64,000 nt of DNA from a virus (Duplodnaviria; Heunggongvirae; Uroviricota; Caudoviricetes). How positions within the stretch are numbered: the stretch's first letter is position 1; every line of letters begins with the position of its first letter. This document shows positions 11,080 to 63,489 of this stretch, one piece after another. The notes beneath the pieces are model-generated. The model saw only the letters and a program-made list of their open reading frames with translations, did no database searches and was not told the DNA's origin. The stretch lies in the IMG/VR virus record IMGVR_UViG_3300034160_000140; one strand, 5' to 3'. Made by a program: the position numbers and the translations under genes.

Positions 11080-11502
11080 ATGATCATTCTTTTGCAAATT
11101 ATGCTGTTGCGATTGTTCATTTTCATGAAGTTGAAAACAGAGGTCGAGTTTTCATACTTGAACACTGATTTTTTCAGGCGAGTAGGTTGTCGGATTAAAT
11201 TTAACAGAACAACCAGCCAACCTGTTATTCATCCTTCATCTGGCAAGGTGTTGTATTATAAATATGATCATAACTCCTTGACGATTACTCTTTTTAAAGG
11301 TGGCATGGTGGTTGACCACTGGAAAGGTGATAAATTGTATACTTATCACAGTGTTGACTTCCAGTCATTGAACTCATCAAGTGCTTTTGTTAAAATTAGA
11401 TACATGAGTTCGTTTTATGTAAAATTTGTGGAAACGATTTTACACACCATGCAAAAAAAAGATGAAAAAGTGCTTGAACTCGACGTAAAAAATTCTGTAT
11501 AA
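11080..11502 (+). CDS. hypothetical protein (weak call)
   Basis: Start abuts the previous stop; GAGG Shine-Dalgarno site; unusual hydrophobic N-terminus. Confidence 0.3.
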   Translation: MIILLQIMLLRLFIFMKLKTEVEFSYLNTDFFRRVGCRIKFNRTTSQPVIHPSSGKVLYYKYDHNSLTITLFKGGMVVDHWKGDKLYTYHSVDFQSLNSSSAFVKIRYMSSFYVKFVETILHTMQKKDEKVLELDVKNSV

Positions 11503-11637
11503 TAACCACTCACTTGGGCTGAAAAGCCCTTCGTATAAAGCTTCATCGCAAGTGCTAAGTAGCAGAGAACAATAACAAAACCTGCCTATTGAATACGACA
11601 AAACTGCCGATATTTATTCTCAGACAGGAGATTCACC

Positions 11638-11790
11638 ATGCTTAAAACCAAACGTATGCTTTTATTATTCCTTGCCTTGGGCTTTACTGGGGGTGGGGAT
11701 CACCATCAACACCATGACCGATCACCTTCGCAATCTAAGGTTCGTCGGTGGTCTTCACTGCACTACAAAAACAAACATTCGCAGCATTAA
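11638..11790 (+). CDS. small His-rich peptide with signal-like N-terminus (50 aa)
   Basis: Strong Shine-Dalgarno site cAGGAGattcaccATG; MLKTKRMLLLFLALGFTGGG then DHHQHHD; not in the >=60-aa ORF track. Confidence 0.3.
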   Translation: MLKTKRMLLLFLALGFTGGGDHHQHHDRSPSQSKVRRWSSLHYKNKHSQH

Positions 11791-11804
11791 ATCTAATTTT
11801 TCTG

Positions 11805-11833
11805 TTGTATCTAAGCCAAATACTTGGTATAAT
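11805..11833 (+). promoter_or_regulatory. sigma70-type promoter (TTGTAT-17-TATAAT with TG extension) for the lipoprotein gene
   Basis: ttgtat...cttgGTATAAT. Confidence 0.5.
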
Positions 11834-11842
11834 TAACCCATC

Positions 11843-11884
11843 GAAGCAGCAAGGGGCGAGCAACCCAATAAGCCTTTCCCCTTG
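11843..11884 (+). promoter_or_regulatory. conserved structured 5'-leader element (copy 1)
   Basis: gaagcagcaaggggcgagcaacccaataagcctttccccttg is ~85% identical to 41178-41219; inverted repeat caagggg/ccccttg. Confidence 0.5.
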
Positions 11885-11927
11885 CGATTGCTCATTCGAC
11901 CTTAATTGAAACGAGAAGGATACGACC

Positions 11928-12266
11928 ATGAAAGTAATGAAAATTGTTTTTGCTGCTCTTGCCCTTGTAATGATGACTGGCTGCATGTCAACCTCTCAGT
12001 ATGGCTCCTACAAAGAACGTCAAATTGAACGCAAGTGCATCGTGAATGCTGACAAACAAGCTCAAAATGCCTACATTCGCCGTCAAACTGATGTTCGGTT
12101 TGCAGACTCTCAGAAGGAAGCCATGCGAGCTAACCAAATGTTTCAGAAAAAGATTGCCAGCATTGAAACCAGCAAAGACCGTTGTTTGTCCAATGGTCAG
12201 CGTCGGGTGTTTGAAGAACAGCTTCGCCGCACGACTAACCGCATGTATAACCGTAGCTACTACTGA
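11928..12266 (+). CDS. lipoprotein, unknown function
   Basis: Lipobox LVMMTG/C; AAGGATAC Shine-Dalgarno site; terminator 12286-12308. Confidence 0.55.
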   Translation: MKVMKIVFAALALVMMTGCMSTSQYGSYKERQIERKCIVNADKQAQNAYIRRQTDVRFADSQKEAMRANQMFQKKIASIETSKDRCLSNGQRRVFEEQLRRTTNRMYNRSYY

Positions 12267-12285
12267 TAGTAGACAGCTTAAAAAA

Positions 12286-12308
12286 GCCCGCCAAGTGCGG
12301 GTTTTTTG
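12286..12308 (+). terminator. rho-independent terminator
   Basis: gcccgccaagtgcgggt followed by T6. Confidence 0.7.
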
Positions 12309-12360
12309 TTTATATTTTTTAAGTTTTATGGTATAATTTGACAAATTTTGGAGGTTAATC

Positions 12361-12660
12361 ATGCCTTATCATACTGCAGCACCTACCAAAGCCGTTATTC
12401 ATGAATCCTATAAACTGGTTTTTGAAGCTAATGGCTATACCGCTTATGAGTGGAGTGGTCGCCTATTCCTTTATCGTAAAGGTCTTTCGTTGGCTCAACT
12501 GGTTAATGGTTTTGAAAGCTTGAAGAAAAGTTATCGAAATAGCTTTGAAATCTGGATCGACAAAGTGAAAGAAAAGGATCTCGCCAAAATTGAAAGCATT
12601 AAGGCTGATATGGCGTTGATGATTAAAGATTGTGAAACCATTTTGGATGTTCATTCTTAA
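12361..12660 (+). CDS. hypothetical protein
   Basis: TTGGAGG Shine-Dalgarno site; promoter tgGTATAAT at ~12334. Confidence 0.5.
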   Translation: MPYHTAAPTKAVIHESYKLVFEANGYTAYEWSGRLFLYRKGLSLAQLVNGFESLKKSYRNSFEIWIDKVKEKDLAKIESIKADMALMIKDCETILDVHS

Positions 12661-21644: not shown

Positions 21645-22766
21645 ATGTCCAGCATCTTCCCGCGTATTGAAACCCTTGATGATATGCTTCCTCACATCAA
21701 AGACCGTGCCTATATTTCTGTTAATAAACAGGATAACGGTGCCAACATCGTTTGCTATAACATCAGCAACGGCGACTCTTTCAACACTCCGGTTGAAAAG
21801 GAAGCTCGCGGTATTACCTTTGACGACAACGGTAAAATCCTGTCGCGTCCATTGCACAAATTCTTCAACTTGGCAGAGCGTGCAGAAGTCCAACCAGCCG
21901 TTTTGGATTGGAACACGATGGTCGCCGGGTTTGATAAAATGGATGGCTCCATGATTACCACAGGGCTGTTCAACGGCGAATTTTTTGCTAAGTCCAAGAA
22001 GTCTTTCAAATCGGATGTGGCTGTTTCTGCAGAAAGTTTTGTGTCTCGTAACCAGAAATACTACGAGTTCACCAAATATTGCTCTCAGGCCCAACTGACC
22101 CCTATTTTTGAATTCACTTCGCCAAAACATCGTATCGTTTTGCGTTATGACGAAGACAACATGACACTTCTTCATGTTCGTCACAACATCACAGGCGATT
22201 ACTTAATGCCTGCTGACAAAGACCAACTGGCGTTGTTGTTTGATATTCCTGTTAACAAGCCACTGTTTGGTGAAGAATTTGATTTGGCTGCTTTATTGAA
22301 GTCGCTGAACACTGTTGAAGGGATTGAAGGCTACGTTATTCAGTTCGTTAACGGTAACATGATCAAAATCAAAACCAAATGGTATATGAACCTCCATCAT
22401 GCGGTTAGCTTTGTTCGTGAACGTGATATTGCTCGGTTGGTGGTTGAAGAAAAACTTGATGATTATATCGCTTATTTGTCGCTGAACTCGCCAACGGCTG
22501 ATTTGAGTGAGATTTATCGAATCAATGACGCTATCAAAGCTTCGATTGAAGCGTTGTCGAAAGAAGTTGATGATATTGCTGCTGAATTCCAAGGTGTTGA
22601 TGTGAAAACTGCAGCAATTCAGCTTAAAGGCCATAAACACTTTGGTTTTGTTATGGGTGCAATTCGTGGTCACAAAAACGACTACCTGTATCACTACTCT
22701 AAAAACCATCTGGTGGATTGGTCGTTGGAACAAATTGAGCTTGGCGACTTGTCAGCTCCGGTTTAA
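21645..22766 (+). CDS. rnlA: RNA ligase, T4 Rnl1 (gp63) family, paralog 1
   Basis: Nucleotidyltransferase motifs in T4 Rnl1 order: FDKMDGSM (motif I Lys), HKFFNLAE, EFTSPKHRIVLRY, GIEGYVIQF (motif IV), MIKIKTKWY (motif V); similar length (373 aa) to T4 Rnl1. Confidence 0.75.
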   Translation: MSSIFPRIETLDDMLPHIKDRAYISVNKQDNGANIVCYNISNGDSFNTPVEKEARGITFDDNGKILSRPLHKFFNLAERAEVQPAVLDWNTMVAGFDKMDGSMITTGLFNGEFFAKSKKSFKSDVAVSAESFVSRNQKYYEFTKYCSQAQLTPIFEFTSPKHRIVLRYDEDNMTLLHVRHNITGDYLMPADKDQLALLFDIPVNKPLFGEEFDLAALLKSLNTVEGIEGYVIQFVNGNMIKIKTKWYMNLHHAVSFVRERDIARLVVEEKLDDYIAYLSLNSPTADLSEIYRINDAIKASIEALSKEVDDIAAEFQGVDVKTAAIQLKGHKHFGFVMGAIRGHKNDYLYHYSKNHLVDWSLEQIELGDLSAPV

Positions 22767-23676: not shown

Positions 23677-23732
23677 ATTAAAAATCAGTTTTTGATATAA
23701 TCAATTCAGACAATTTAATCGTGGAGATTCAC

Positions 23733-24854
23733 ATGACTTATCAACAAGAACTGTATGCCCAACTGATGAACCTGTTGGTGACGAATCCGGGGTCGTTCAA
23801 ATACCGTGATGAAACCTCGGCAGTAGACGGCGGGACTTACCGTGTCTTCAACTATGACATTCCAAAGCACTCCGAATTCAAACTTCCGGGTGCTAAGGAT
23901 TGCCGTGGGGTCATGTTCTACATGGGCGGTGATGATCCAGTGCTGGTTGCATTGCCTATGCAGAAATTTTTCTCGCTCGGTGAAACCCCAGAGACTCAAA
24001 AGATCAAGCCAGAAGAAGCGGATCATGCTTACTTGAAGCCGGACGGTTCCTTGCTGACCAGCTATATCTCGCCGGTTAACAATACGCTTTACTACAAGAG
24101 CAAAAAGAAGCCAACTTTTGCCGATTATGACCTTGTTGAGAAGTCTATCAGCCCTGAGTTGCACGCTGACATTGAGCGTCTGACCCGCACAGGTATTTCT
24201 GTTGACTTGGAATTGACCACGCCCAAAAACCGCGTGTTCATTGAATACACTGATTACGCTGTTCATATCCTAAAAGCCCGTGATATGAGCACTGGTGCTT
24301 ATGTTGATATTCGTTCGGCTGAATTCGCTGCCAAATACCCGGTTATTGCGGCCCATTTGGTGAAACGTATCCCTATCAATGAACTCAACGTCAATGACCC
24401 TGAGATTGAGGGTTATGTGGTTGAATTTGGCACTGACATGTATAAGGTGAAGACAATTCCTTACCTGAAAATGTCGGCAGTTGTCAACATTCAGGATCGG
24501 TCGAAGGAACGTCAGGTTATTTATGAAGCAACCCTTCACGAAATTCTGGATGAAATCCGTTCGTTGTATCACTACCGGACGCACAGCGACAACTTCCCAC
24601 TGGCTGAAATTCTGGCTCGCTTGGATGAAGTAGAAGACTATGCACGTAAAAGCTACCATTACCTTGTTCGCACGGTCGATAGCTTCCACAATGAGCATAA
24701 AGGTCTGGAACGTGGCGATTACGCTCGTAAAGCCAAAGAAGTGGCTCCATTGCTTCTGTCGGTGTTGATGAGCAAGTTTTCGGGTGATGAGATTGATTAC
24801 AAACAAGCTGCTATCATGGTATTTGCTCGTAAACAAGTGCCTATTCCCGAGTAA
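23733..24854 (+). CDS. rnlA: RNA ligase, T4 Rnl1 (gp63) family, paralog 2
   Basis: DCRGVMF, MQKFFSLGE, YLKPDGSL (KxDG motif I), DLELTTPKNRVFIEY, EIEGYVVEF, MYKVKTIPY. These line up with T4 Rnl1 ECRGIMF / MEKFFNL / KEDGSL / NFEFVAPTNRIVLAY / NIEGYVAV / HFKIKSDWY. Confidence 0.85.
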   Translation: MTYQQELYAQLMNLLVTNPGSFKYRDETSAVDGGTYRVFNYDIPKHSEFKLPGAKDCRGVMFYMGGDDPVLVALPMQKFFSLGETPETQKIKPEEADHAYLKPDGSLLTSYISPVNNTLYYKSKKKPTFADYDLVEKSISPELHADIERLTRTGISVDLELTTPKNRVFIEYTDYAVHILKARDMSTGAYVDIRSAEFAAKYPVIAAHLVKRIPINELNVNDPEIEGYVVEFGTDMYKVKTIPYLKMSAVVNIQDRSKERQVIYEATLHEILDEIRSLYHYRTHSDNFPLAEILARLDEVEDYARKSYHYLVRTVDSFHNEHKGLERGDYARKAKEVAPLLLSVLMSKFSGDEIDYKQAAIMVFARKQVPIPE

Positions 24855-28079: not shown

Positions 28080-28207
28080 CCTTTCGAAGTAATCAAAAGC
28101 CCTTGACCAGTTCAGGGGCTTTTTTCATTCAAAAATAAGTTTTTTGTTGCCTTTAACGGCTATTTTTGATATACTTATCGCAACTTAAAATGAATGAGGA
28201 TTTTACA

Positions 28208-29080
28208 ATGTTCCATACCAACGGAAACCGTCGCCCAAACCCTGTTCTGTCCATTGTGATCAATCATCATGGTAAAAGCTTCAATGAAGTGGTTCGTTTT
28301 GTAAATGGCTATTTCAGTGAGGTTAAAAACAGTCGCGTTTCCATGCTGTTGGATAAAAAGGTTTTTGCACAGGCACTGTATCCGCTGAAAACAGTGAACC
28401 GTATTGAGTGGAAATCGGTTGAAGACACTTACAAAAGTGAAGGTAACTACACTTTGTTCAACATCACCAAAACAGCCACTAAACATGAGGCTCTGTTGAA
28501 TATCTACATCATCCCACAAGAAATGTTGCTGGAAATGCCAAAGCAAAAGGACACTAACTTTGAAGCTACGATGAATCCTGATTTTGTCGTGGAAGAAAAA
28601 CGTCTTAGCCAAGGCCCGGTCATTACCGTTTTCACGACCGAAGACATTGATGGTGTTCATTACTTCAAAAGTCAAACGGAAGCTCTGTATTACGTCAAAG
28701 GCAATCAGTCTGCACTGTCTACTGTTGATGTTATTTGTGTCGGTGATGAATACTTTGAAGTGAAGGCTAAATTGCCCGCTTTCAAAGCCGTCAATGTCAA
28801 TGAACATAAACTGTTTGCTTTCCTGCCACACAAGGCACCAAAAGACCAGACAATGTTTTCGGCCAGTGTTGACCGTGCTGATCGAAATGTCTTCACTCAT
28901 GACGTGGATAGCTTCGAAGATGGCCTTTACAAAGTTCAAGGTAGCTTGACTGGGGCGGTTCTGGTTGAGACTTTGACCAGCAAAATCAAATCCAGCACTC
29001 GCAAAGCTTACTTCTTGAAATATGGTTCGGATGAATACAAAAAAGTAGTGGCTGAAATGCCAATGGTTACGACTGTTTAA
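28208..29080 (+). CDS. hypothetical protein
   Basis: ATGAGGA Shine-Dalgarno site then ATG 28208. Confidence 0.5.
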   Translation: MFHTNGNRRPNPVLSIVINHHGKSFNEVVRFVNGYFSEVKNSRVSMLLDKKVFAQALYPLKTVNRIEWKSVEDTYKSEGNYTLFNITKTATKHEALLNIYIIPQEMLLEMPKQKDTNFEATMNPDFVVEEKRLSQGPVITVFTTEDIDGVHYFKSQTEALYYVKGNQSALSTVDVICVGDEYFEVKAKLPAFKAVNVNEHKLFAFLPHKAPKDQTMFSASVDRADRNVFTHDVDSFEDGLYKVQGSLTGAVLVETLTSKIKSSTRKAYFLKYGSDEYKKVVAEMPMVTTV

Positions 29081-34860: not shown

Positions 34861-35282
34861 CGGCTTTGAATGTGGGTGATATTTTCGAGTATCACCAATT
34901 TAGCGATTCTTATATTGCGTTTGTCGCTAAGGATGAACGCATTGTTCTTTTTAAACCGGCTACAACTTATAGTAAGTATTACTTGAAGTATTGTGCAGCA
35001 TTAACAGAAGCAAGCCATGCCGAAGTTATTAAAGATCCTAAGTTTAAAAAATGTCACTTGGACAATATGCCGGATGATTTTAAAGCCTGCTATGCACAAG
35101 AGTTCTCGACATTGAAAAAAGGCTCGAAAGTTGACTTCAATTATCGTGGAACCATTATTTCTGGTGTTGTTGTTCAGCGTCATACATTAGTGATGGCGAA
35201 ATTTTCTCTTAATTCAACCATCATTCATATCACGGCAGAACCTTATCTTTTCACTCAGAAAACTGATTTATGTGTATCATGA
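34857..35282 (+). CDS. hypothetical protein (translationally coupled, ATGA overlap)
   Basis: 4-nt overlap with the upstream gene. Confidence 0.5.
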   Translation: MTALNVGDIFEYHQFSDSYIAFVAKDERIVLFKPATTYSKYYLKYCAALTEASHAEVIKDPKFKKCHLDNMPDDFKACYAQEFSTLKKGSKVDFNYRGTIISGVVVQRHTLVMAKFSLNSTIIHITAEPYLFTQKTDLCVS

Positions 35283-35337
35283 AACTTCGGTTTCTGTTAC
35301 AATAGATTTAACATCAATAGAACAAGGCAACACCATC

Positions 35338-35832
35338 ATGAAATCATTCAAAAAAGATGAAAAAATTCCCGGTTGTGGTTATTTCTTTGTGCGTGAACGT
35401 GGTGTTGATGGTATTCATGCTTTCGAAAAGCACCGTCGCCTTCGTGTCTTTTTTCATAAAGGTTTATCTTGTGTAACGCCTAATTGCCAGAATGTGGGTA
35501 ATCGGTTGATTTTTTCCCGTGATAGCCAAGGTGGTGGACATTGGGACTTGTTTACTGACGATATGGTTTTGATGACTATTGACCATATTACTGCCAAGAA
35601 AAATGGCGGTAGCAATGAACTTGAAAACCTTCAGCCTATGTGCTGCCACTGTAATACTACGAAAGGCCATCAGGTTATCACGTTGGATGAACTGGCTGTC
35701 CAAATGATTGATTTTGAGGCAAGGATGGAAGCTAAAAAGCAAAAAAAACGTGAACGTCGAGATCCTGTTGTTATTGCAAGAAAAAGGGAAGAACGGAAGA
35801 AAAAACGCGAAATGGTTGCCGAAGCAGCTTAA
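35338..35832 (+). CDS. HNH endonuclease (free-standing, homing-endonuclease-like)
   Basis: MTIDHITAKKNGGSNELENLQPMCCHCNTTKG carries the canonical DH..K..GG.....N...C..CN motif, with an upstream Cys pair; own promoter ctgTTACAAT and terminator 35843-35870. Confidence 0.7.
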   Translation: MKSFKKDEKIPGCGYFFVRERGVDGIHAFEKHRRLRVFFHKGLSCVTPNCQNVGNRLIFSRDSQGGGHWDLFTDDMVLMTIDHITAKKNGGSNELENLQPMCCHCNTTKGHQVITLDELAVQMIDFEARMEAKKQKKRERRDPVVIARKREERKKKREMVAEAA

Positions 35833-41063: not shown

Positions 41064-41138
41064 TATTAAGCCCCAGCGATGGGGCTTTTTTGTTTCTAAA
41101 TTTTATTTTTTTATAGAATTGGTTTTTGATAGAAAAAG

Positions 41139-41167
41139 CTTGTTTTTGATTTCTGCTTTTGATATAC
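41139..41167 (+). promoter_or_regulatory. sigma70-type promoter (TTGTTT-17-TATACT with TG extension)
   Basis: cttgtttttgatttctgcttttgaTATACT. Confidence 0.45.
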
Positions 41168-41177
41168 TAACCACGTT

Positions 41178-41219
41178 GAAGCAGCAAGAGGCGAGCAAAC
41201 CAGTAAGTCTTTCCCCTTG
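41178..41219 (+). promoter_or_regulatory. conserved structured 5'-leader element (copy 2)
   Basis: gaagcagcaagaggcgagcaaaccagtaagtctttccccttg; similarity to the locus at 11843 continues up to the AAGGATAC Shine-Dalgarno site. Confidence 0.5.
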
Positions 41220-41261
41220 TTAATGCTTACTCATCATAATCAGTTAAAAAGGATACAAAAC

Positions 41262-41396
41262 ATGCAAGGTTCTTTCGGTGACGCAGTAGAACGTTTTCGC
41301 GGCGGCAAGAAAAAAGACAATGAACAAGCAAAGTTCCACAAAAAAGATAACGAGTTTCGGAATAAACGCCGGAATCGTCATCAAGACGCAGAGTAA
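41262..41396 (+). CDS. small Lys/Arg-rich protein (44 aa), copy 1 of 4
   Basis: MQGSFGDAVERFRGGKKKDNEQAKFHKKDNEFRNKRRNRHQDAE; AAGGATAC Shine-Dalgarno site; ~93% nucleotide identity to 48141..48275. Confidence 0.5.
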   Translation: MQGSFGDAVERFRGGKKKDNEQAKFHKKDNEFRNKRRNRHQDAE

Positions 41397-43513: not shown

Positions 43514-44380
43514 TTAGTTAACTTGGCAAACTTGATATCCGCCTGATTGATATGGCCCACGTCTGTATAGTTTACCATCAGTTCCTCTTACATCTGGATA
43601 GTTAGTTAAGTAGTCTGGATTGACATAATTTCTATATACAACATTACCTTGCCATAAAACAGTTAATTCTGTAATGTAACCTTCATCTTCTTGATAACCC
43701 CATTCATAAGAACTCCATGCGAAGTTACATACTGTCGCTGGTTTTGTTCCAATACTTGTTCTGGTTGATGTGGTTGTAATGGATTGATTTTCAATAGTCG
43801 ATGATCCTACATTTCTTATCACATTTGTGGTTGTTTCTTGTTCACGATTTTGTTTGCTACGAGTTTGAGGTTGCTTACAATCCGTTGCAGTTTGTGTGAA
43901 TGATTGACCAGATGTGACCGTTGATGTGGCTGGACTCCAGTTCGTGCAGCTTGTTACAGCCCCACTATTAACCCATGTTGTGACATCAGCAGCAATCGCC
44001 ACCCATGTTTCTAATGTGCCTACAGCACTCCGTGTTTGAGTTGTGTTAATACTTTGGGATTCATTGTAAGGATTTCCAATGTTACGAATACTGCCTGAAA
44101 CATTATCAACTTCTCGATCTTGCACTGTTCTGGTTTGATCTTGCTTACAGTCGTTTGCTGTTTGTGTAAACGTATTTCCGATGGTTATTGCAGATACTGC
44201 AGGACTCCAATTTAAACATGAATGCACACTTCCTGTGTTTTCCCAATCGCCATACAATGGAGAATTTGCAGTCCAACTGGCAAATCTTACTGGTTCATCT
44301 AAGTTAAATTTAACAATATATTCAGCTTGTATTATGCCACCAGCTAATGCCAGCGTTAATGATAGTAATGTTTTTTTCAT
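43514..44380 (-). CDS. secreted modular-family protein with two Cys-pair repeat domains
   Basis: Signal peptide ...GGIIQA/EYIVKF; two copies of W.N(T/S)G.V.SC.NWSP..S....G..FTQTA.DCKQ.QTR..Q.RE; C-terminal ...GGYQVCQVN tail. Confidence 0.6.
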   Translation of the reverse strand: MKKTLLSLTLALAGGIIQAEYIVKFNLDEPVRFASWTANSPLYGDWENTGSVHSCLNWSPAVSAITIGNTFTQTANDCKQDQTRTVQDREVDNVSGSIRNIGNPYNESQSINTTQTRSAVGTLETWVAIAADVTTWVNSGAVTSCTNWSPATSTVTSGQSFTQTATDCKQPQTRSKQNREQETTTNVIRNVGSSTIENQSITTTSTRTSIGTKPATVCNFAWSSYEWGYQEDEGYITELTVLWQGNVVYRNYVNPDYLTNYPDVRGTDGKLYRRGPYQSGGYQVCQVN

Positions 44381-44672: not shown

Positions 44673-44835
44673 TACCCCATCAAGACGAAACGGAGAAACA
44701 AACATCTTGCCAGAATAAACCAGCACTTCTTATAAGCAGCTTGTTTTGGAATAATAACTTCGGTTACCAATATAGCTTGTAAGTATGGAACACTACTCGG
44801 TGCAGATATAAATAGAGTAGTCCATATCATATTAA

Positions 44836-48087: not shown

Positions 48088-48140
48088 TATCCCATCAAAA
48101 CGAAACAACACAAACAAACTAATAGGTTAGGAGATACAAA

Positions 48141-48275
48141 ATGCAAGGCTCTTTCGGTGACGCAGTAGAACGTTTTCGCGGTGGCAAGAAAAAAGACAAT
48201 GAACAAGCGAAGTATCACAAAAAAGATAACGAGTTTCGGAAGCGTCGCCGTAATCGTCATCAAGACGCAGAGTAA
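48141..48275 (+). CDS. small Lys/Arg-rich protein (44 aa), copy 2 of 4
   Basis: MQGSFGDAVERFRGGKKKDNEQAKYHKKDNEFRKRRRNRHQDAE; leader cccatcaaaacgaaacaacacaaac; GGAGATACA Shine-Dalgarno site. Confidence 0.5.
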   Translation: MQGSFGDAVERFRGGKKKDNEQAKYHKKDNEFRKRRRNRHQDAE

Positions 48276-55770: not shown

Positions 55771-55859
55771 TTGAACAAAAATATCTTTACATAAAATCTG
55801 ATTTTCGCTATACTTGTCTCATCAAAACGAAACACCACAAACCAGTCGGAGATACACAA

Positions 55860-55991
55860 ATGCAAGGTTCTTTCGGTGAAGCAACAGAACGTTTTCGCGG
55901 CAAGCAACAAGACGCTTCCAAGACCAAAGAAAATCGCAAAGAACGTCAGTTCCGTGATGCTCGCCGCAACCGTCATCAAGACTCCGAATAA
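55860..55991 (+). CDS. small Lys/Arg-rich protein (43 aa), copy 3 of 4
   Basis: MQGSFGEATERFRGKQQDASKTKENRKERQFRDARRNRHQDSE; leader ctcatcaaaacgaaacaccacaaac. Confidence 0.5.
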   Translation: MQGSFGEATERFRGKQQDASKTKENRKERQFRDARRNRHQDSE

Positions 55992-58506: not shown

Positions 58507-58974
58507 ATGAAACGGTTTATTTTCTCTAAAATCACAATTGTTTTTGTTGTCCACATACTGCTTTTAGTTGGCCTTTATTATGGAACCAAATCAATTGCAA
58601 TGGTTCATGATCGGGCAGTAGTTCCTGTTTATCTGGTTGCTGTTAAACCTGATTCTGCAAAAACTTATGATGAAAATGGTTTTTTTATCGGTCAATTTGT
58701 TGGTGAATTTGACTATGAAGGTCACCGATTTGAACAAAATATTTCAATAAGCCAACGATTTGAGTTGATTCAATCGAAAAAGCCTGTTAGACACATGAAA
58801 CTTCTTTCAGCGGCTGAAATAGGTCTTGACACTCCTTTCAATGGGCCGGGAACATATCTTTTTTATATACTTTCGATGGCTACATTCTTCTTAATGTTTT
58901 TGTTTACTGACCTTCCAAAATTTTACAGGGCTAATCAAAAAACTGTTTTTGATGAAAATAAAGCTTGCTCGTAA
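58507..58974 (+). CDS. membrane protein
   Basis: AAAGGATAAACACA-ATG; N- and C-terminal TM helices. Confidence 0.45.
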   Translation: MKRFIFSKITIVFVVHILLLVGLYYGTKSIAMVHDRAVVPVYLVAVKPDSAKTYDENGFFIGQFVGEFDYEGHRFEQNISISQRFELIQSKKPVRHMKLLSAAEIGLDTPFNGPGTYLFYILSMATFFLMFLFTDLPKFYRANQKTVFDENKACS

Positions 58975-59038
58975 ATGTGTTTTTTGATATGATAGACACA
59001 TCAAAACGAGATACCCAATCAAATATCGGAGATACACC

Positions 59039-60679: not shown

Positions 60680-60839
60680 CAAATTTTGACTTCACAAAAA
60701 AGAGGCTTCGGCCTCTTTTTTATTATCAATTATCAATAAACTATAAAATGATAAAAAACTGCTTTACATGATGGATCAATTTCGTTATAATTATCCCATC
60801 AAAACGAAACACCACAATCAAACAGTTAGGAGATACACC

Positions 60840-60971
60840 ATGCAAGGTTCTTTCGGTGAAGCCACAGAGCGTTTTCGCGGCAAGCAACAAGACACTTCGA
60901 AATCCAAAGAAAATCGGAAAGAACGTAACTTCCGCGACAAACGTCGCAATCGTCATCAAGACGCCGAATAA
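60840..60971 (+). CDS. small Lys/Arg-rich protein (43 aa), copy 4 of 4
   Basis: MQGSFGEATERFRGKQQDTSKSKENRKERNFRDKRRNRHQDAE; leader cccatcaaaacgaaacaccacaatc; GGAGATACACC Shine-Dalgarno site. Confidence 0.5.
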   Translation: MQGSFGEATERFRGKQQDTSKSKENRKERNFRDKRRNRHQDAE

Positions 60972-61021: not shown

Positions 61022-61633
61022 TTACATTGGCACTCTACATACAGTCCATATTGACGAGTATCCAGAGTTACTAGTAATAGTTCCTTTTTTATAGGTATAG
61101 GTTCCAACAACTTTTTCAGTTGCTGCATATTCGCCACCACTATACACTAAGGTACCAGCCCATTTTATATTAAGAAGTGCATATGCTGGAGAACCTGCTG
61201 TCCAACTAGAATCAGCAACATTACATTCCTCAACAGTCTTTGTTCCAATAGCTGTTCGGGTAGTTGTTTGATTTTTTAATGTTTGACTCTCATTTTTTAT
61301 AGACCCAACATTTCTATATTCATGACTGACATTGTTTTGCTCTCTTTCCTGCACTGTTCTGGTTTGCTCTTGATTACACCCACTACCAGTTTGAGGAAAG
61401 GATACTCCCATATTTACTGTGTTGGTGTCTGGTGTCCATGCTGTGCATCCTGTTGGAGAACCCACATTGACCCATGAACTCAATAATGGGGCGGAACTTA
61501 ACCATTTACTTACAAAACTAATATTTTCACCATTAATTTGTTTTTCACCGTATATAACTTGGTAATTTGCGTTTGCACTAGCCATTATACCTAATAAAGC
61601 AAATGGCAATATCATTAAACTTGTTTTTTTCAT
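61022..61633 (-). CDS. secreted modular-family protein (one Cys-pair domain), tandem-array member 1
   Basis: Signal peptide ...MASANA/NYQVIYGEKQINGENISFVSKWLSS; WVNVGSPTGCTAWTPD...FPQTGSGCNQEQTRTVQEREQNN; C-terminal ...YKKGTITSNSGYSSIWTVCRVPM. Confidence 0.6.
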   Translation of the reverse strand: MKKTSLMILPFALLGIMASANANYQVIYGEKQINGENISFVSKWLSSAPLLSSWVNVGSPTGCTAWTPDTNTVNMGVSFPQTGSGCNQEQTRTVQEREQNNVSHEYRNVGSIKNESQTLKNQTTTRTAIGTKTVEECNVADSSWTAGSPAYALLNIKWAGTLVYSGGEYAATEKVVGTYTYKKGTITSNSGYSSIWTVCRVPM

Positions 61634-61667
61634 ATCTTACTCATTATTATTATTATTGATTTAAAAT

Positions 61668-62075
61668 TTATATTTTTTCTCTACATATTGTATAGGTATA
61701 ACTACTACCAGAACCACCTACTAGATCACTTCCTCTAGTATATTTGTAACCATCAATAACTTTTTCGGTTGCTAAATAGTCACCATCTACACTTATTTGA
61801 ACACCACCCCATGATAAAGCAAGCACAGCATATGAAGGAGAACCAGCCGTCCAAGACGCAAAATTGGATGGTGTTTCTCTTACACTGCATTCTTTTCCTG
61901 AGCCACTTGGTGGAACAGATGGCCCAGATCCAGAATTAGAATCATTTGTAACAAACTTTATGTTATCACCATTTATTTGTTTTTCACCATAAACAACCAT
62001 GTATGACGCATTCGCCATTGTTGTAATACTTAATAAACCCAATACTGTTATTATTTTTTTTATATTTGCTATCAT
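61668..62075 (-). CDS. secreted modular-family protein (short; Ser/Gly/Pro linker, no Cys-pair domain), array member 2
   Basis: Signal peptide ...TTMANA/SYMVVYGEKQINGDNIKFVTN; C-terminal ...YKYTRGSDLVGGSGSSYTYTICREKI. Confidence 0.55.
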   Translation of the reverse strand: MIANIKKIITVLGLLSITTMANASYMVVYGEKQINGDNIKFVTNDSNSGSGPSVPPSGSGKECSVRETPSNFASWTAGSPSYAVLALSWGGVQISVDGDYLATEKVIDGYKYTRGSDLVGGSGSSYTYTICREKI

Positions 62076-62140
62076 TTTAATCTTCTTTATTTATTGTTAT
62101 TTATATATCGCATTACATTTAGTTAAAATTAGTATACTTT

Positions 62141-62185
62141 TTATTATATTGGAACTCTACAAACGCTATGGAATGTGTAATAACC
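62141..62185. repeat. 45-nt exact repeat (3' end plus 3' flank of a secreted gene), copy A
   Basis: ttattatattggaactctacaaacgctatggaatgtgtaataacc is identical at 62863..62907. Confidence 0.8.
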
Positions 62186-62770
62186 TGCGTTAGCAGTTTG
62201 AGCACCTTTGGTATATTTATATCCATTATACGTGTATTCTGTTAAGTAGATATTGCCACTGTCAGGGAATACTTTTACACCTTCCCACATAACATACATA
62301 ACACCGAATGATGGTGTGCCATTAACCCAGCGTGTATTTTGATCTTTTGAACATTCTTCAATGACCTTTGTTCCGTTTGCAGAACGGGTTAGTGTTTGAT
62401 TAGTTAGCGTTTGATTCTCATTTTTAACAGAACCTAAATTTCTGGACTCTCCACTGACATTATTTTTCTCTCTTTCCTGAACTGTTCTTGTTTGATTTTG
62501 ACTGCATCCAGTAGCTGTTTGATCAAAGGTCACTCCAATATTTTTTGTGCTTACGTCTGGTGTCCATGCTGAACAACCTGTTGGAGAACCTACATTTGTC
62601 CAGTTACCTAACAATGGATCAGAACTTAACCATTTGCTTACAAAACTAATATTGTCACCATTAATTTGTTTTTCACCATAAACTACAGTGTAGGATGGTT
62701 CTTTTGCTTGTGCATTAACTGCCAAACCTAGCAAAGCTAACGATAGTATTTTTATCATTGATTTTTTCAT
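62144..62770 (-). CDS. secreted modular-family protein (one Cys-pair domain), array member 3
   Basis: Signal peptide ...AVNAQA/KEPSYTVVYGEKQINGDNISFVSKWLSS; WTNVGSPTGCSAWTPD...FDQTATGCSQNQTRTVQEREKNN; C-terminal ...YKYTKGAQTANAGYYTFHSVCRVPI. Confidence 0.6.
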   Translation of the reverse strand: MKKSMIKILSLALLGLAVNAQAKEPSYTVVYGEKQINGDNISFVSKWLSSDPLLGNWTNVGSPTGCSAWTPDVSTKNIGVTFDQTATGCSQNQTRTVQEREKNNVSGESRNLGSVKNENQTLTNQTLTRSANGTKVIEECSKDQNTRWVNGTPSFGVMYVMWEGVKVFPDSGNIYLTEYTYNGYKYTKGAQTANAGYYTFHSVCRVPI

Positions 62771-62862
62771 TTAATCTCTCATATCTTATTATTATTGTTA
62801 TTTATATATTATCATGTGTTTTCCTAATTGAAATACTTTAATGCTAATATATTTATTATCAT

Positions 62863-62907
62863 TTATTATATTGGAACTCTACAAACGCTATGGAATGTGT
62901 AATAACC
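62863..62907. repeat. 45-nt exact repeat, copy B
   Basis: Identical to 62141..62185; similarity (~88%) continues through the C-terminal coding half. Confidence 0.8.
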
Positions 62908-63489
62908 ATAGTTAGCAGTTAATGCACCTTTAGTGTATTTATATCCATTATAGGTATATTCTGTTAAGTTAATATTACCAATATCAGGGAATACTTTTAC
63001 ACCTTCCCACATGATATACATCATACTCATTGATGGTGTGCCATTAACCCAACGTGTGTTCATATCTTTTGAACATTCATCCACAACCTTTGTTCCATTT
63101 GCCGAACGGGTTATTGTCTGATTAGTGAGTGTTTGTGATTCATTTATTGGATTGCCAATAGGTCGAAATGCTAACGTATAATTGTTTTGTTCTCTGTTCT
63201 GGACTGTTCTCGATTGTTCTTGTTCGCAGTCACTGGCTGTTTGGTCAAAAGTTATTCCAATTGCCATTGTGCTCGGGTCAGGTGTCCAACCAGAACAACC
63301 AGATGGAGAGCCTACATCAGCCCATGCTGATATTTCTGGTGATGCTTTTATCCACTTGCCTTTTTTGACAAACGTGATGTTGTCTCCATTGATTTGTTTC
63401 TCTCCATATATAGCAGTATATGAAGCATTTGCTGTTAATGCAGTGCTCGCTAAAAGGGCACTTGTTAACATAAGTATTGTCTTTTTCAT
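62866..63489 (-). CDS. secreted modular-family protein (one Cys-pair domain), array member 4
   Basis: Signal peptide ...ALTANA/SYTAIYGEKQINGDNITFVKKGKW; WADVGSPSGCSGWTPD...FDQTASDCEQEQSRTVQNREQNN; C-terminal half (from ECSKD..NTRWVNGTPS to YTFHSVCRVPI) nearly identical to 62144..62770. Confidence 0.6.
   Translation of the reverse strand: MKKTILMLTSALLASTALTANASYTAIYGEKQINGDNITFVKKGKWIKASPEISAWADVGSPSGCSGWTPDPSTMAIGITFDQTASDCEQEQSRTVQNREQNNYTLAFRPIGNPINESQTLTNQTITRSANGTKVVDECSKDMNTRWVNGTPSMSMMYIMWEGVKVFPDIGNINLTEYTYNGYKYTKGALTANYGYYTFHSVCRVPI

Follow-up and report, generated by a model that had tools for sequence, protein, structure and literature searches.

In lambdoid phages, the nut site is made of boxA and boxB RNA that is bound by the arginine-rich N protein; boxB, a 5-bp stem with a GNRA-like pentaloop lying after boxA, is a short hairpin placed just after early promoters, recognized by sequence and shape and reused at several transcription units. 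Phage translational operators, such as those of T4 RegA, gp32 and gp43 and of MS2 and PP7, depend on one RNA-binding protein that acts on a shared tag for timed shut-off, and they overlap or abut the ribosome-binding site or the start codon. The operators of gp43, MS2 and PP7 are hairpins with a covarying stem and invariant bulge or loop bases, and the RegA sites of T4 are unstructured, AU-rich and overlap the start codon. Hairpins near the 5′ end of an mRNA are also known from the Escherichia coli ompA-type stabilizers and from the bulged RNase III hairpins of phage T7, and RNase III sites usually span about two helical turns (about 20 bp). At the DNA level, PeSLs of T4-like phages are composites of a terminator stem-loop and early promoter DNA between ORFs, and in the hyperplastic regions of these phages small ORFan genes are flanked by PeSLs, with recombination breakpoints at the PeSL motifs (PMC2839356, PMC4122927).

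The motif described here is new, but its kind is familiar, since it is a structured 5′-leader element. It is a hairpin of ~46 nt from P1 to P1, modeled as 55 nt with its flanks, and forms a portable 5′ tag on several otherwise uncharacterized genes of an uncultivated lineage. Two copies are present in the window, by which we mean the whole 64,000-nt stretch of DNA that was analyzed, one in the leader of a predicted lipoprotein gene and the other in the leader of a small basic protein gene (Table 1).

Table 1. Coordinates, strand and supporting observations of the two tagged transcription units and of the basic-protein paralogs in the window.
Feature	Position	Strand	Details
Predicted sigma-70-type extended −10 promoter, copy 1	11805..11833	+	TTGTAT, 17-nt spacer, TGgTATAAT; pattern scan
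Hairpin motif, copy 1	11842..11896	+	Covariance model; minimum-energy fold equals the consensus structure, −19.3 kcal/mol; covariation
P1-to-P1 part, copy 1	11846..11891	+	GCA, GCAAGGGG, C, GAGC, 10-nt loop, G-C-CUU, U, CCCCUUGC, GAU bulge, UGC
Spacer and ribosome-binding site, copy 1	11897..11927	+	AAGGATAC at 11916-11923
Downstream gene 1, predicted 112-aa lipoprotein	11928..12266	+	LMTGC lipobox; translation
Intrinsic-terminator-like hairpin closing the lipoprotein transcription unit	12281..12307	+	Terminator listing
Terminator-like hairpin closing the upstream unit, immediately 5′ of the copy 2 promoter	41068..41087	+	Terminator listing
Predicted extended −10 promoter, copy 2	41140..41168	+	TTGTTT, 17-nt spacer, TGaTATACT; consensus only, family D15
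Hairpin motif, copy 2	41177..41231	+	P1-to-P1 at 41181-41226; one A·C mismatch in P2
Ribosome-binding site, copy 2	41249..41256	+	AAGGATAC; read in sequence
Downstream gene 2, 44-aa arginine/lysine-rich protein	41262..41396	+	One of four window paralogs
Basic-protein paralog	48141..48275		
Basic-protein paralog	55860..55991		
Basic-protein paralog	60840..60971		

The two window copies are 82% identical over the 55 nt of the hairpin element (45/55) and 90% identical over a 42-nt core (38/42), and a global alignment of the leaders at 11836-11927 and 41170-41261 contains 69 identities in 94 columns (73%). The first-pass annotation had located two leader copies at these sites, where they were indeed found, blastn with a word size of 7 aligning them over 81 nt at 76.5% identity (E 1e-11). 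Its estimate of ~80-85% identity is right for the hairpin part and too high for the leader as a whole, and the similarity that it saw continuing to the start codon is weak, the only solid block after the hairpin being AAGGATAC, a generic ribosome-site consensus. Six copies of this octamer are present in the window, where 1.35 would be expected, and the sites read in the sequence (6928, 11916, 13200, 19077 and 41249) lie just 5′ of plus-strand starts. Similarly, the initial transcribed CCCATC and the TGnTATAAT −10 box are common to many other promoters of the window, and the copy 1 promoter, which a stricter −35 rule leaves unlisted, belongs to a genome-wide promoter repeat family. The element specific to both genes is the ~55-nt hairpin, and the −10 box, CCCATC and the octamer are generic to the genome; the copy 1 spacer is conserved among lipoprotein orthologs only and lies outside the shared element. 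In both tagged leaders, which are unusually long, the −10 box and the ATG are ~94 nt apart, compared with ~20-35 nt for most other leaders of the window.

A third copy of the element could not be found in the 64,000 nt, the next-best blastn match having an E value of at least 0.24. Degenerate core patterns of 25 and 39 nt matched the two window sites only, with 0 matches expected from 100 shuffles. A covariance model built from 11 versions of the leader scored copy 1 at 80.3 bits (E 1.3e-17) and copy 2 at 71.2 bits (E 2.4e-15), and the next match in the window, with the filters off, reached 14.5 bits.

The lipoprotein has nine homolog clusters in metagenomes (67-99% identity), and a pattern scan of JGI metagenomes supplied two further lipoprotein loci. 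The hairpin was present upstream of every recovered lipoprotein ortholog with upstream sequence, in 12 distinct leader versions. With the covariance model, two new hairpins (66 and 64 bits) were detected in L024, a 16-kb locus on a 1.84-Mb ENA contig, one before a 241-aa ORF and the other before a 151-aa membrane protein overlooked by the gene caller. The public call at 12000-12587 of this locus is a 195-aa minus-strand ORF; the promoter, the hairpin leader, the ribosome site and a similar-looking membrane protein in locus L042 indicate that the plus-strand ORF at 12108-12563 is the real gene. A loop-only pattern scan revealed two more hairpins on a 290-kb IMG/VR viral contig (IMGVR_UViG_3300024308_000302), of which the first (60.6 bits) precedes a 158-aa membrane protein and the second (68.6 bits) precedes the most distant tagged lipoprotein ortholog, which is 49.5% identical to the window protein and has syntenic neighbors of 48-59% identity. 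The 158-aa and 151-aa membrane proteins look orthologous in a by-eye comparison of their translations, in which the alignment was left unscored.

Altogether, the related metagenomic contigs and the 290-kb viral contig yielded 15 distinct hairpin versions, at 2-3 copies per genome region sampled, and the hairpin precedes at least four unrelated gene families, namely the lipoprotein, the 44-aa basic protein, the 151-158-aa membrane protein and the 241-aa protein. The earlier suggestion of a structured noncoding leader shared by unrelated genes therefore holds. Pfam and PHROG gave no significant match for any of these tagged proteins, and they have no recognizable shared function or common metabolic theme.

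The RNAalifold consensus comprises P1 (GCA/UGC), a 3-nt bulge on the 3′ side (shortened to 2 nt in L042), P2 of 8 bp, a C·U mismatch, and an invariant P3, in which GAGC pairs with G-(Y)-CUU around a 1-nt bulge and closes a 10-nt loop, giving 15 bp (3+8+4). For 10 of 13 sequences, the minimum-energy fold matches this consensus or differs from it by at most one extra pair, and the hairpin stability ranges from −10 to −19 kcal/mol. Among the 15 distinct sequences, 99.1% of the 225 stem cells hold standard pairs, in comparison with 48-56% after the 3′ partners were slid by 1-3 columns. Five P2 pairs occur with more than one standard pair type and four of them were changed on both sides, including G-C to U-A, so that position 12-40 is found as GC, GU, AU or UA and position 15-37 as GC, AU or UA; 11 cells have both sides changed. 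Examples of the stem versions are CAAGGGA/UCCCUUG (L003), CAAGAGG/CCUCUUG (L012) and CAAGAAG/CUUCUUG (L019), and a P2 mismatch is confined to two copies, window copy 2 and L001. The covariation score was 0.273, compared with 0.157 ± 0.018 after shuffling, and 0/500 shuffles reached 0.273. This control ignores relatedness, which inflates it, and does not give a probability, but the two-sided transversions of the distant IMG/VR relative arose independently.

The pair 17-35 is G·U throughout, and G·U is also found at 8-44 (7/15 sequences) and at 7-48 (3/15). Since G·U pairs would be C·A on the opposite strand, the plus-strand structure is that of the sense RNA, and a DNA palindrome or an antisense RNA is excluded by the same pairs. 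Invariant columns make up 28 of the 55, including CGAGCA and A-R-UAAG-Y-CUUU, whereas four loop-tip bases, the bulge and the flanking stems vary; the invariant stretches include CGAGCA and UAAGCCUUU. The loop and internal-loop bases are unchanged even where the neighboring proteins are only ~50% (48-59%) identical. The hairpin is a real, selected, sense-strand RNA structure. The stem put forward in the first-pass annotation (caag.gg with ccccttg) turned out to be the core of the 8-bp helix, with compensatory changes among the further homologs, and conservation across strains, which had been set against a recent duplication, extends down to ~50% protein identity.

Relative to the promoter, the hairpin is fixed in position, as its column 1 follows the −10 box by 7-8 nt in every context, and it begins ~5-6 nt after transcription starts that were placed by promoter consensus only. 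On the other side, ~10 to 28 nt separate it from the ribosome site, with variation even between orthologs, and 21-36 nt lie between the hairpin end and the AUG. Most lipoprotein leaders have an additional outer helix, UCGA/UCGA (11841-11844 with 11897-11900), which pairs nucleotides ~+2 to +5; L018 shows a double change in it (UCAA/UUGA) and L008 a single disruptive change. It is absent from window copy 2, from both L024 leaders (L024a and L024b) and from L056, and ~5-8 nt at the 5′ end are unpaired in three other contexts. An intrinsic terminator or attenuator was rejected as an identity of the element, as neither 11842-11896 nor 41177-41231 contains a listed terminator-like site and neither 3′ flank (CAUUCGACC and UACUCAUCA) has a U-run.

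Rfam 15, applied to the whole window at gathering thresholds, returned the two tRNAs only, and in permissive scans covering 11780-11960 and L024 no family came within 27 bits of its threshold, the best hits (E 4.6 and 0.12) being to unrelated families. The window DNA had no near or distant match among 50,697 phage records by megablast or blastn, and with neither an Rfam match nor similarity in these records the hairpin represents a new structured RNA motif. Strict core patterns had no match in IMG/VR and GTDB genomes, the lipoprotein was not found in IMG/VR by peptide patterns, and looser loop-only patterns in IMG/VR produced 21 further chance loci, all lacking the hairpin. No further hairpins were detected in ~60 kb of non-redundant relative sequence (L025-L036). 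The motif looks confined to the present lineage, at few copies per genome.

The stems covary, ~20 bases of the upper internal loop, P3 and the loop base are fixed, and there is no expression platform, and for these reasons we tentatively favor, at a little below an even chance, the reading that an RNA-binding protein reads the hairpin and thereby co-controls a small set of early mRNAs post-transcriptionally. On this view, a trans-acting factor, probably an RNA-binding protein encoded by the phage or by its host, would recognize the hairpin by both sequence and shape, and its binding could subject a few early mRNAs to joint post-transcriptional control, for example by repressing them at a set time, activating them or altering their stability. 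Counting against this reading are the lack of a shared recognizable function among the downstream proteins, which blurs the logic of a regulon, the small number of sequences behind the covariation (15, from related genomes) and the P2 mismatches of window copy 2 and L001. A tertiary fold of a ligand sensor, or a nuclease site, could account for the invariant bases equally well. Such a tag resembles the phage translational operators in idea, and the gp43, MS2 and PP7 hairpins in its combination of a covarying stem with invariant unpaired bases, but it bears no sequence resemblance to these operators and lies at a variable distance from the start codon instead of overlapping or abutting it. The analogy with RegA and gp32 that had been drawn for this leader is consequently poor, as the structured hairpin ends well short of the AUG.

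The likeness to nut extends to the small arginine-rich protein family encoded in the present genome, and differs in that the hairpin has three helices, bulges, 15 bp and a 10-nt loop. A boxA (CGCTCTTTA-like) is not conserved beside it, the 5′ flank being CCCAUC in all copies and TGCTCTTT appearing 3′ of the hairpin in 1/15 sequences (L024b). A speculative extension, to which we give very little credence, is that the 44-aa arginine-rich protein (genes at 41262, 48141, 55860 and 60840) binds the hairpin as lambda N binds boxB, with one paralog autoregulating through copy 2 and the pair co-controlling envelope proteins (the lipoprotein and the membrane protein, possibly for superinfection exclusion) in a phage-like replicon of ~1.85-1.92 Mb.

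Few handles exist for sorting ORFan phage genes into co-regulated groups, and shared RNA tags are among them; by linking a conserved lipoprotein to a membrane protein, the present tag suggests that both have an early function related to the envelope. The 55-nt element is also a concrete bait for a new RNA-binding regulator.

Among the other explanations, a role in RNA processing or stability is unlikely but the best placed: the hairpin might be cut or protected by a ribonuclease (RNase III, RNase E or a phage endoribonuclease) or act as a 5′-terminal stabilizer, and would then set the lifetime of tagged mRNAs or split them from read-through transcripts. The fixed promoter-side spacing would suit such a role, as would the outer helix, which buries the 5′ end in most lipoprotein leaders and was kept by the double change in L018; no terminator separates the upstream gene from the lipoprotein promoter in the window, and read-through RNA would hold the hairpin internally. 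The bulged shape of the hairpin resembles the T7 RNase III sites. Nevertheless, a pure stabilizer needs no invariant loop sequence, yet half of the columns are invariant, and it would be poorly served by the contexts with unpaired 5′ nucleotides or by L056 without the outer helix; for RNase III, 15 bp interrupted by a 2-3-nt bulge, a C·U mismatch and a 1-nt bulge are short. A small riboswitch or direct sensor, which would bind a metabolite, an ion or another RNA in a pocket built from the invariant internal loop and loop base, seems quite improbable. The concentration of invariant bases in unpaired regions between covarying helices is the usual aptamer signature and the element is always in a 5′ leader, but the same pattern is equally typical of protein-binding sites, and the riboswitch-like option raised in the first-pass annotation is left without any expression platform: there is neither a terminator nor conserved ribosome-site pairing, the spacing to the ribosome site varies, and the complementarity of CCUUU to AAAGG is lost in L024b, whose ribosome site is GGTGA. 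The single hairpin has no junction and no detected pseudoknot partner, and the missing Rfam match and metabolic theme also speak against a sensor.

An element acting at the level of transcription, in which the promoter-proximal nascent hairpin would modify RNA polymerase for nut- or put-like antitermination or pausing, appears very unlikely. Its placement directly after the promoter in all contexts, a genome dense in intrinsic terminators after nearly every gene (families D10 and D16-D18) and several copies of an arginine-rich 44-aa protein family encoded nearby would all be in keeping with it; however, the gene beyond the lipoprotein terminator is served by a promoter of its own and so needs no read-through or antitermination, boxA is not conserved, the 10-nt loop is not a GNRA-like pentaloop, and a single hairpin contrasts with the two of put. 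Least credible of all is the absence of any RNA function, with the leader being a hitch-hiking piece of a promoter cassette moved by PeSL-like recombination or the product of a recent segmental duplication. Leaders have clearly been swapped by recombination in this genome, homology between relatives ending exactly at the −10 box and copy 2 breaking at the ribosome site, but compensatory double changes including transversions preserve the helix, the invariant loop bases persist beside neighboring proteins of low identity, and window copies that are only 82% identical argue against a recent duplication.

Several further candidates for the structure or identity of the element were rejected. An alternative helix, AGGGGC/GCCUUU (columns 11-16 with 31-36), had seemed to explain two of the four core differences between the window copies and is 96% compatible with the sequences; 199/500 shuffles were as good, it is broken by L009, L019, L042 and L056, and it was attributed to slippage between purine and pyrimidine runs. 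An anti-ribosome-site pseudoknot between the loop CCUUU and AAAGG fails on the L024b site and on the variable spacing. Coding sequence was dismissed, as the four core differences lack codon periodicity (phases 0, 1, 2 and 1), TAA is always present in one of the frames and the stems covary. Mimicry of a CRISPR repeat was set aside because ATTGAAAC, which occurs in lipoprotein spacers, is not preserved in L018, L019 and L056 or with the other tagged genes, and a T-loop (UUCRAAU in some versions) is not conserved at its first position.

The gene following copy 2 is one of four paralogs that encode a 43-44-aa arginine/lysine-rich protein (MQGSFG...RRNRHQD), which has 32 homolog clusters in metagenomes and no match in Pfam, PHROG or PDB. 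It is 90% identical at the nucleotide level to the paralog at 48141, and the homology starts at the ribosome site, at ~41250 (family D8); the other three paralogs have a different, unstructured, CA-rich leader, which is also found with most of those database relatives that were called with N-terminal extensions. Because the paralog homology begins at the ribosome site and the other paralogs differ in leader, the hairpin leader was evidently joined to one paralog by recombination at that site. Upstream of the −10 box, different genes occur in different relatives of the lipoprotein locus (L001-L019), and the homology stops at the box; the breakpoint regions in the window are ~11790-11835 and, for copy 2 at the ribosome site, ~41245-41255. 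These boundaries indicate that genes have been shuffled by recombination at regulatory motifs in PeSL style (PMC4122927), and the case shows leader exchange between genes at promoter and ribosome-site junctions. The genomic background is the same as that of the PeSLs, with composites across the window (D2, D10 and D14-D18) and breakpoints at such motifs, and this background explains how a leader can move between cargo genes. PeSLs, however, lie upstream of the transcription start, whereas the hairpin follows the promoter, is no terminator and is under selection as an RNA structure.

A second shared leader family, CCCATCAAAACGAAACACCACAA, is CA-rich, apparently unstructured and located directly after promoters. 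Its 4 matches, against 0.07 expected, are at 44676-44691, 48091-48106, 55818-55833 and 60795-60810, and family D7 adds 58956-59021; the genes concerned are the three basic-protein paralogs, the tRNA cluster and one other gene. Another leader hairpin was noticed at 11516-11529, where 5 bp and a GAAA tetraloop (GGGCU GAAA AGCCC) give a shape like lambda boxB. The promoter at 11474-11503 has its −10 box ~12 nt before this hairpin, which opens the 135-nt leader of a 50-aa gene just upstream of the lipoprotein unit; the fetched relative loci contain no exact match to it.

Small ORFans account for nearly all genes of the window; they share one strand, each has a strong promoter and many also have a terminator, and the region content resembles a jumbo-phage hyperplastic region. 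The recognizable genes encode two Rnl1-type RNA ligases, NUDIX, GNAT, SPFH and HNH proteins, and two tRNAs. The T4 Rnl1-type RNA ligase genes (21645-22766 and 23721-24854) are ~1 kb apart, with two small ORFs between them, and the nearest match to the first ligase (41.7%) is a hypothetical protein encoded by the 344-kb jumbo Ralstonia phage RsoM2USA. Distant homologs of a conserved 154-aa neighbor were confined to giant myoviruses, CBB, GAP32 and Atu_ph07 among them, and one relative is listed as viral in IMG/VR. From these gene contents, assignment of the region to a phage is reasonable, and the lineage may be distantly related to the giant jumbo phages.

The phage assignment should still be taken as provisional, because relatives repeatedly sit on contigs of 1.84-1.92 Mb. 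Relatives including loci L002, L020, L023, L024 and L031 were found on independently assembled contigs of 1,917,244, 1,859,102, 1,858,324, 1,851,360 and 1,843,594 bp, and the contigs in this size range include JGI Ga0308158_10000001 and Ga0308423_1259934 and ENA ERZ27281805 k141_522346; a real replicon of ~1.9 Mb is suggested. Other relative contigs are 1.54 Mb, 835 kb, 678 kb and 290 kb long, and lipoproteins on the large relative contigs are 99%, 90% and 72% identical to that of the window. To our knowledge, the largest phage genomes are ~0.7 Mb, and a literature search for megabase phages found no report.

Tandem paralogs of ~205 aa, which had no match in Pfam, occupy the minus strand at 61022-63489 (families D1, D3, D4 and D9), with a distant copy at 43514-44380, also on the minus strand. 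An HNH endonuclease gene (E 1e-10) was recognized at 35272-35832, and a 304-aa protein encoded at 28166-29080 weakly resembles, below threshold, a Csm6-type HEPN RNase domain (E 0.006). Furthermore, a locus resembling an insertion hot spot, with the same conserved flanks in L031 (2807-4123), L032 (2937-4085) and L033, carries a PAS/methyl-accepting chemotaxis gene, an IS605-type TnpB or neither of them in these three relatives.
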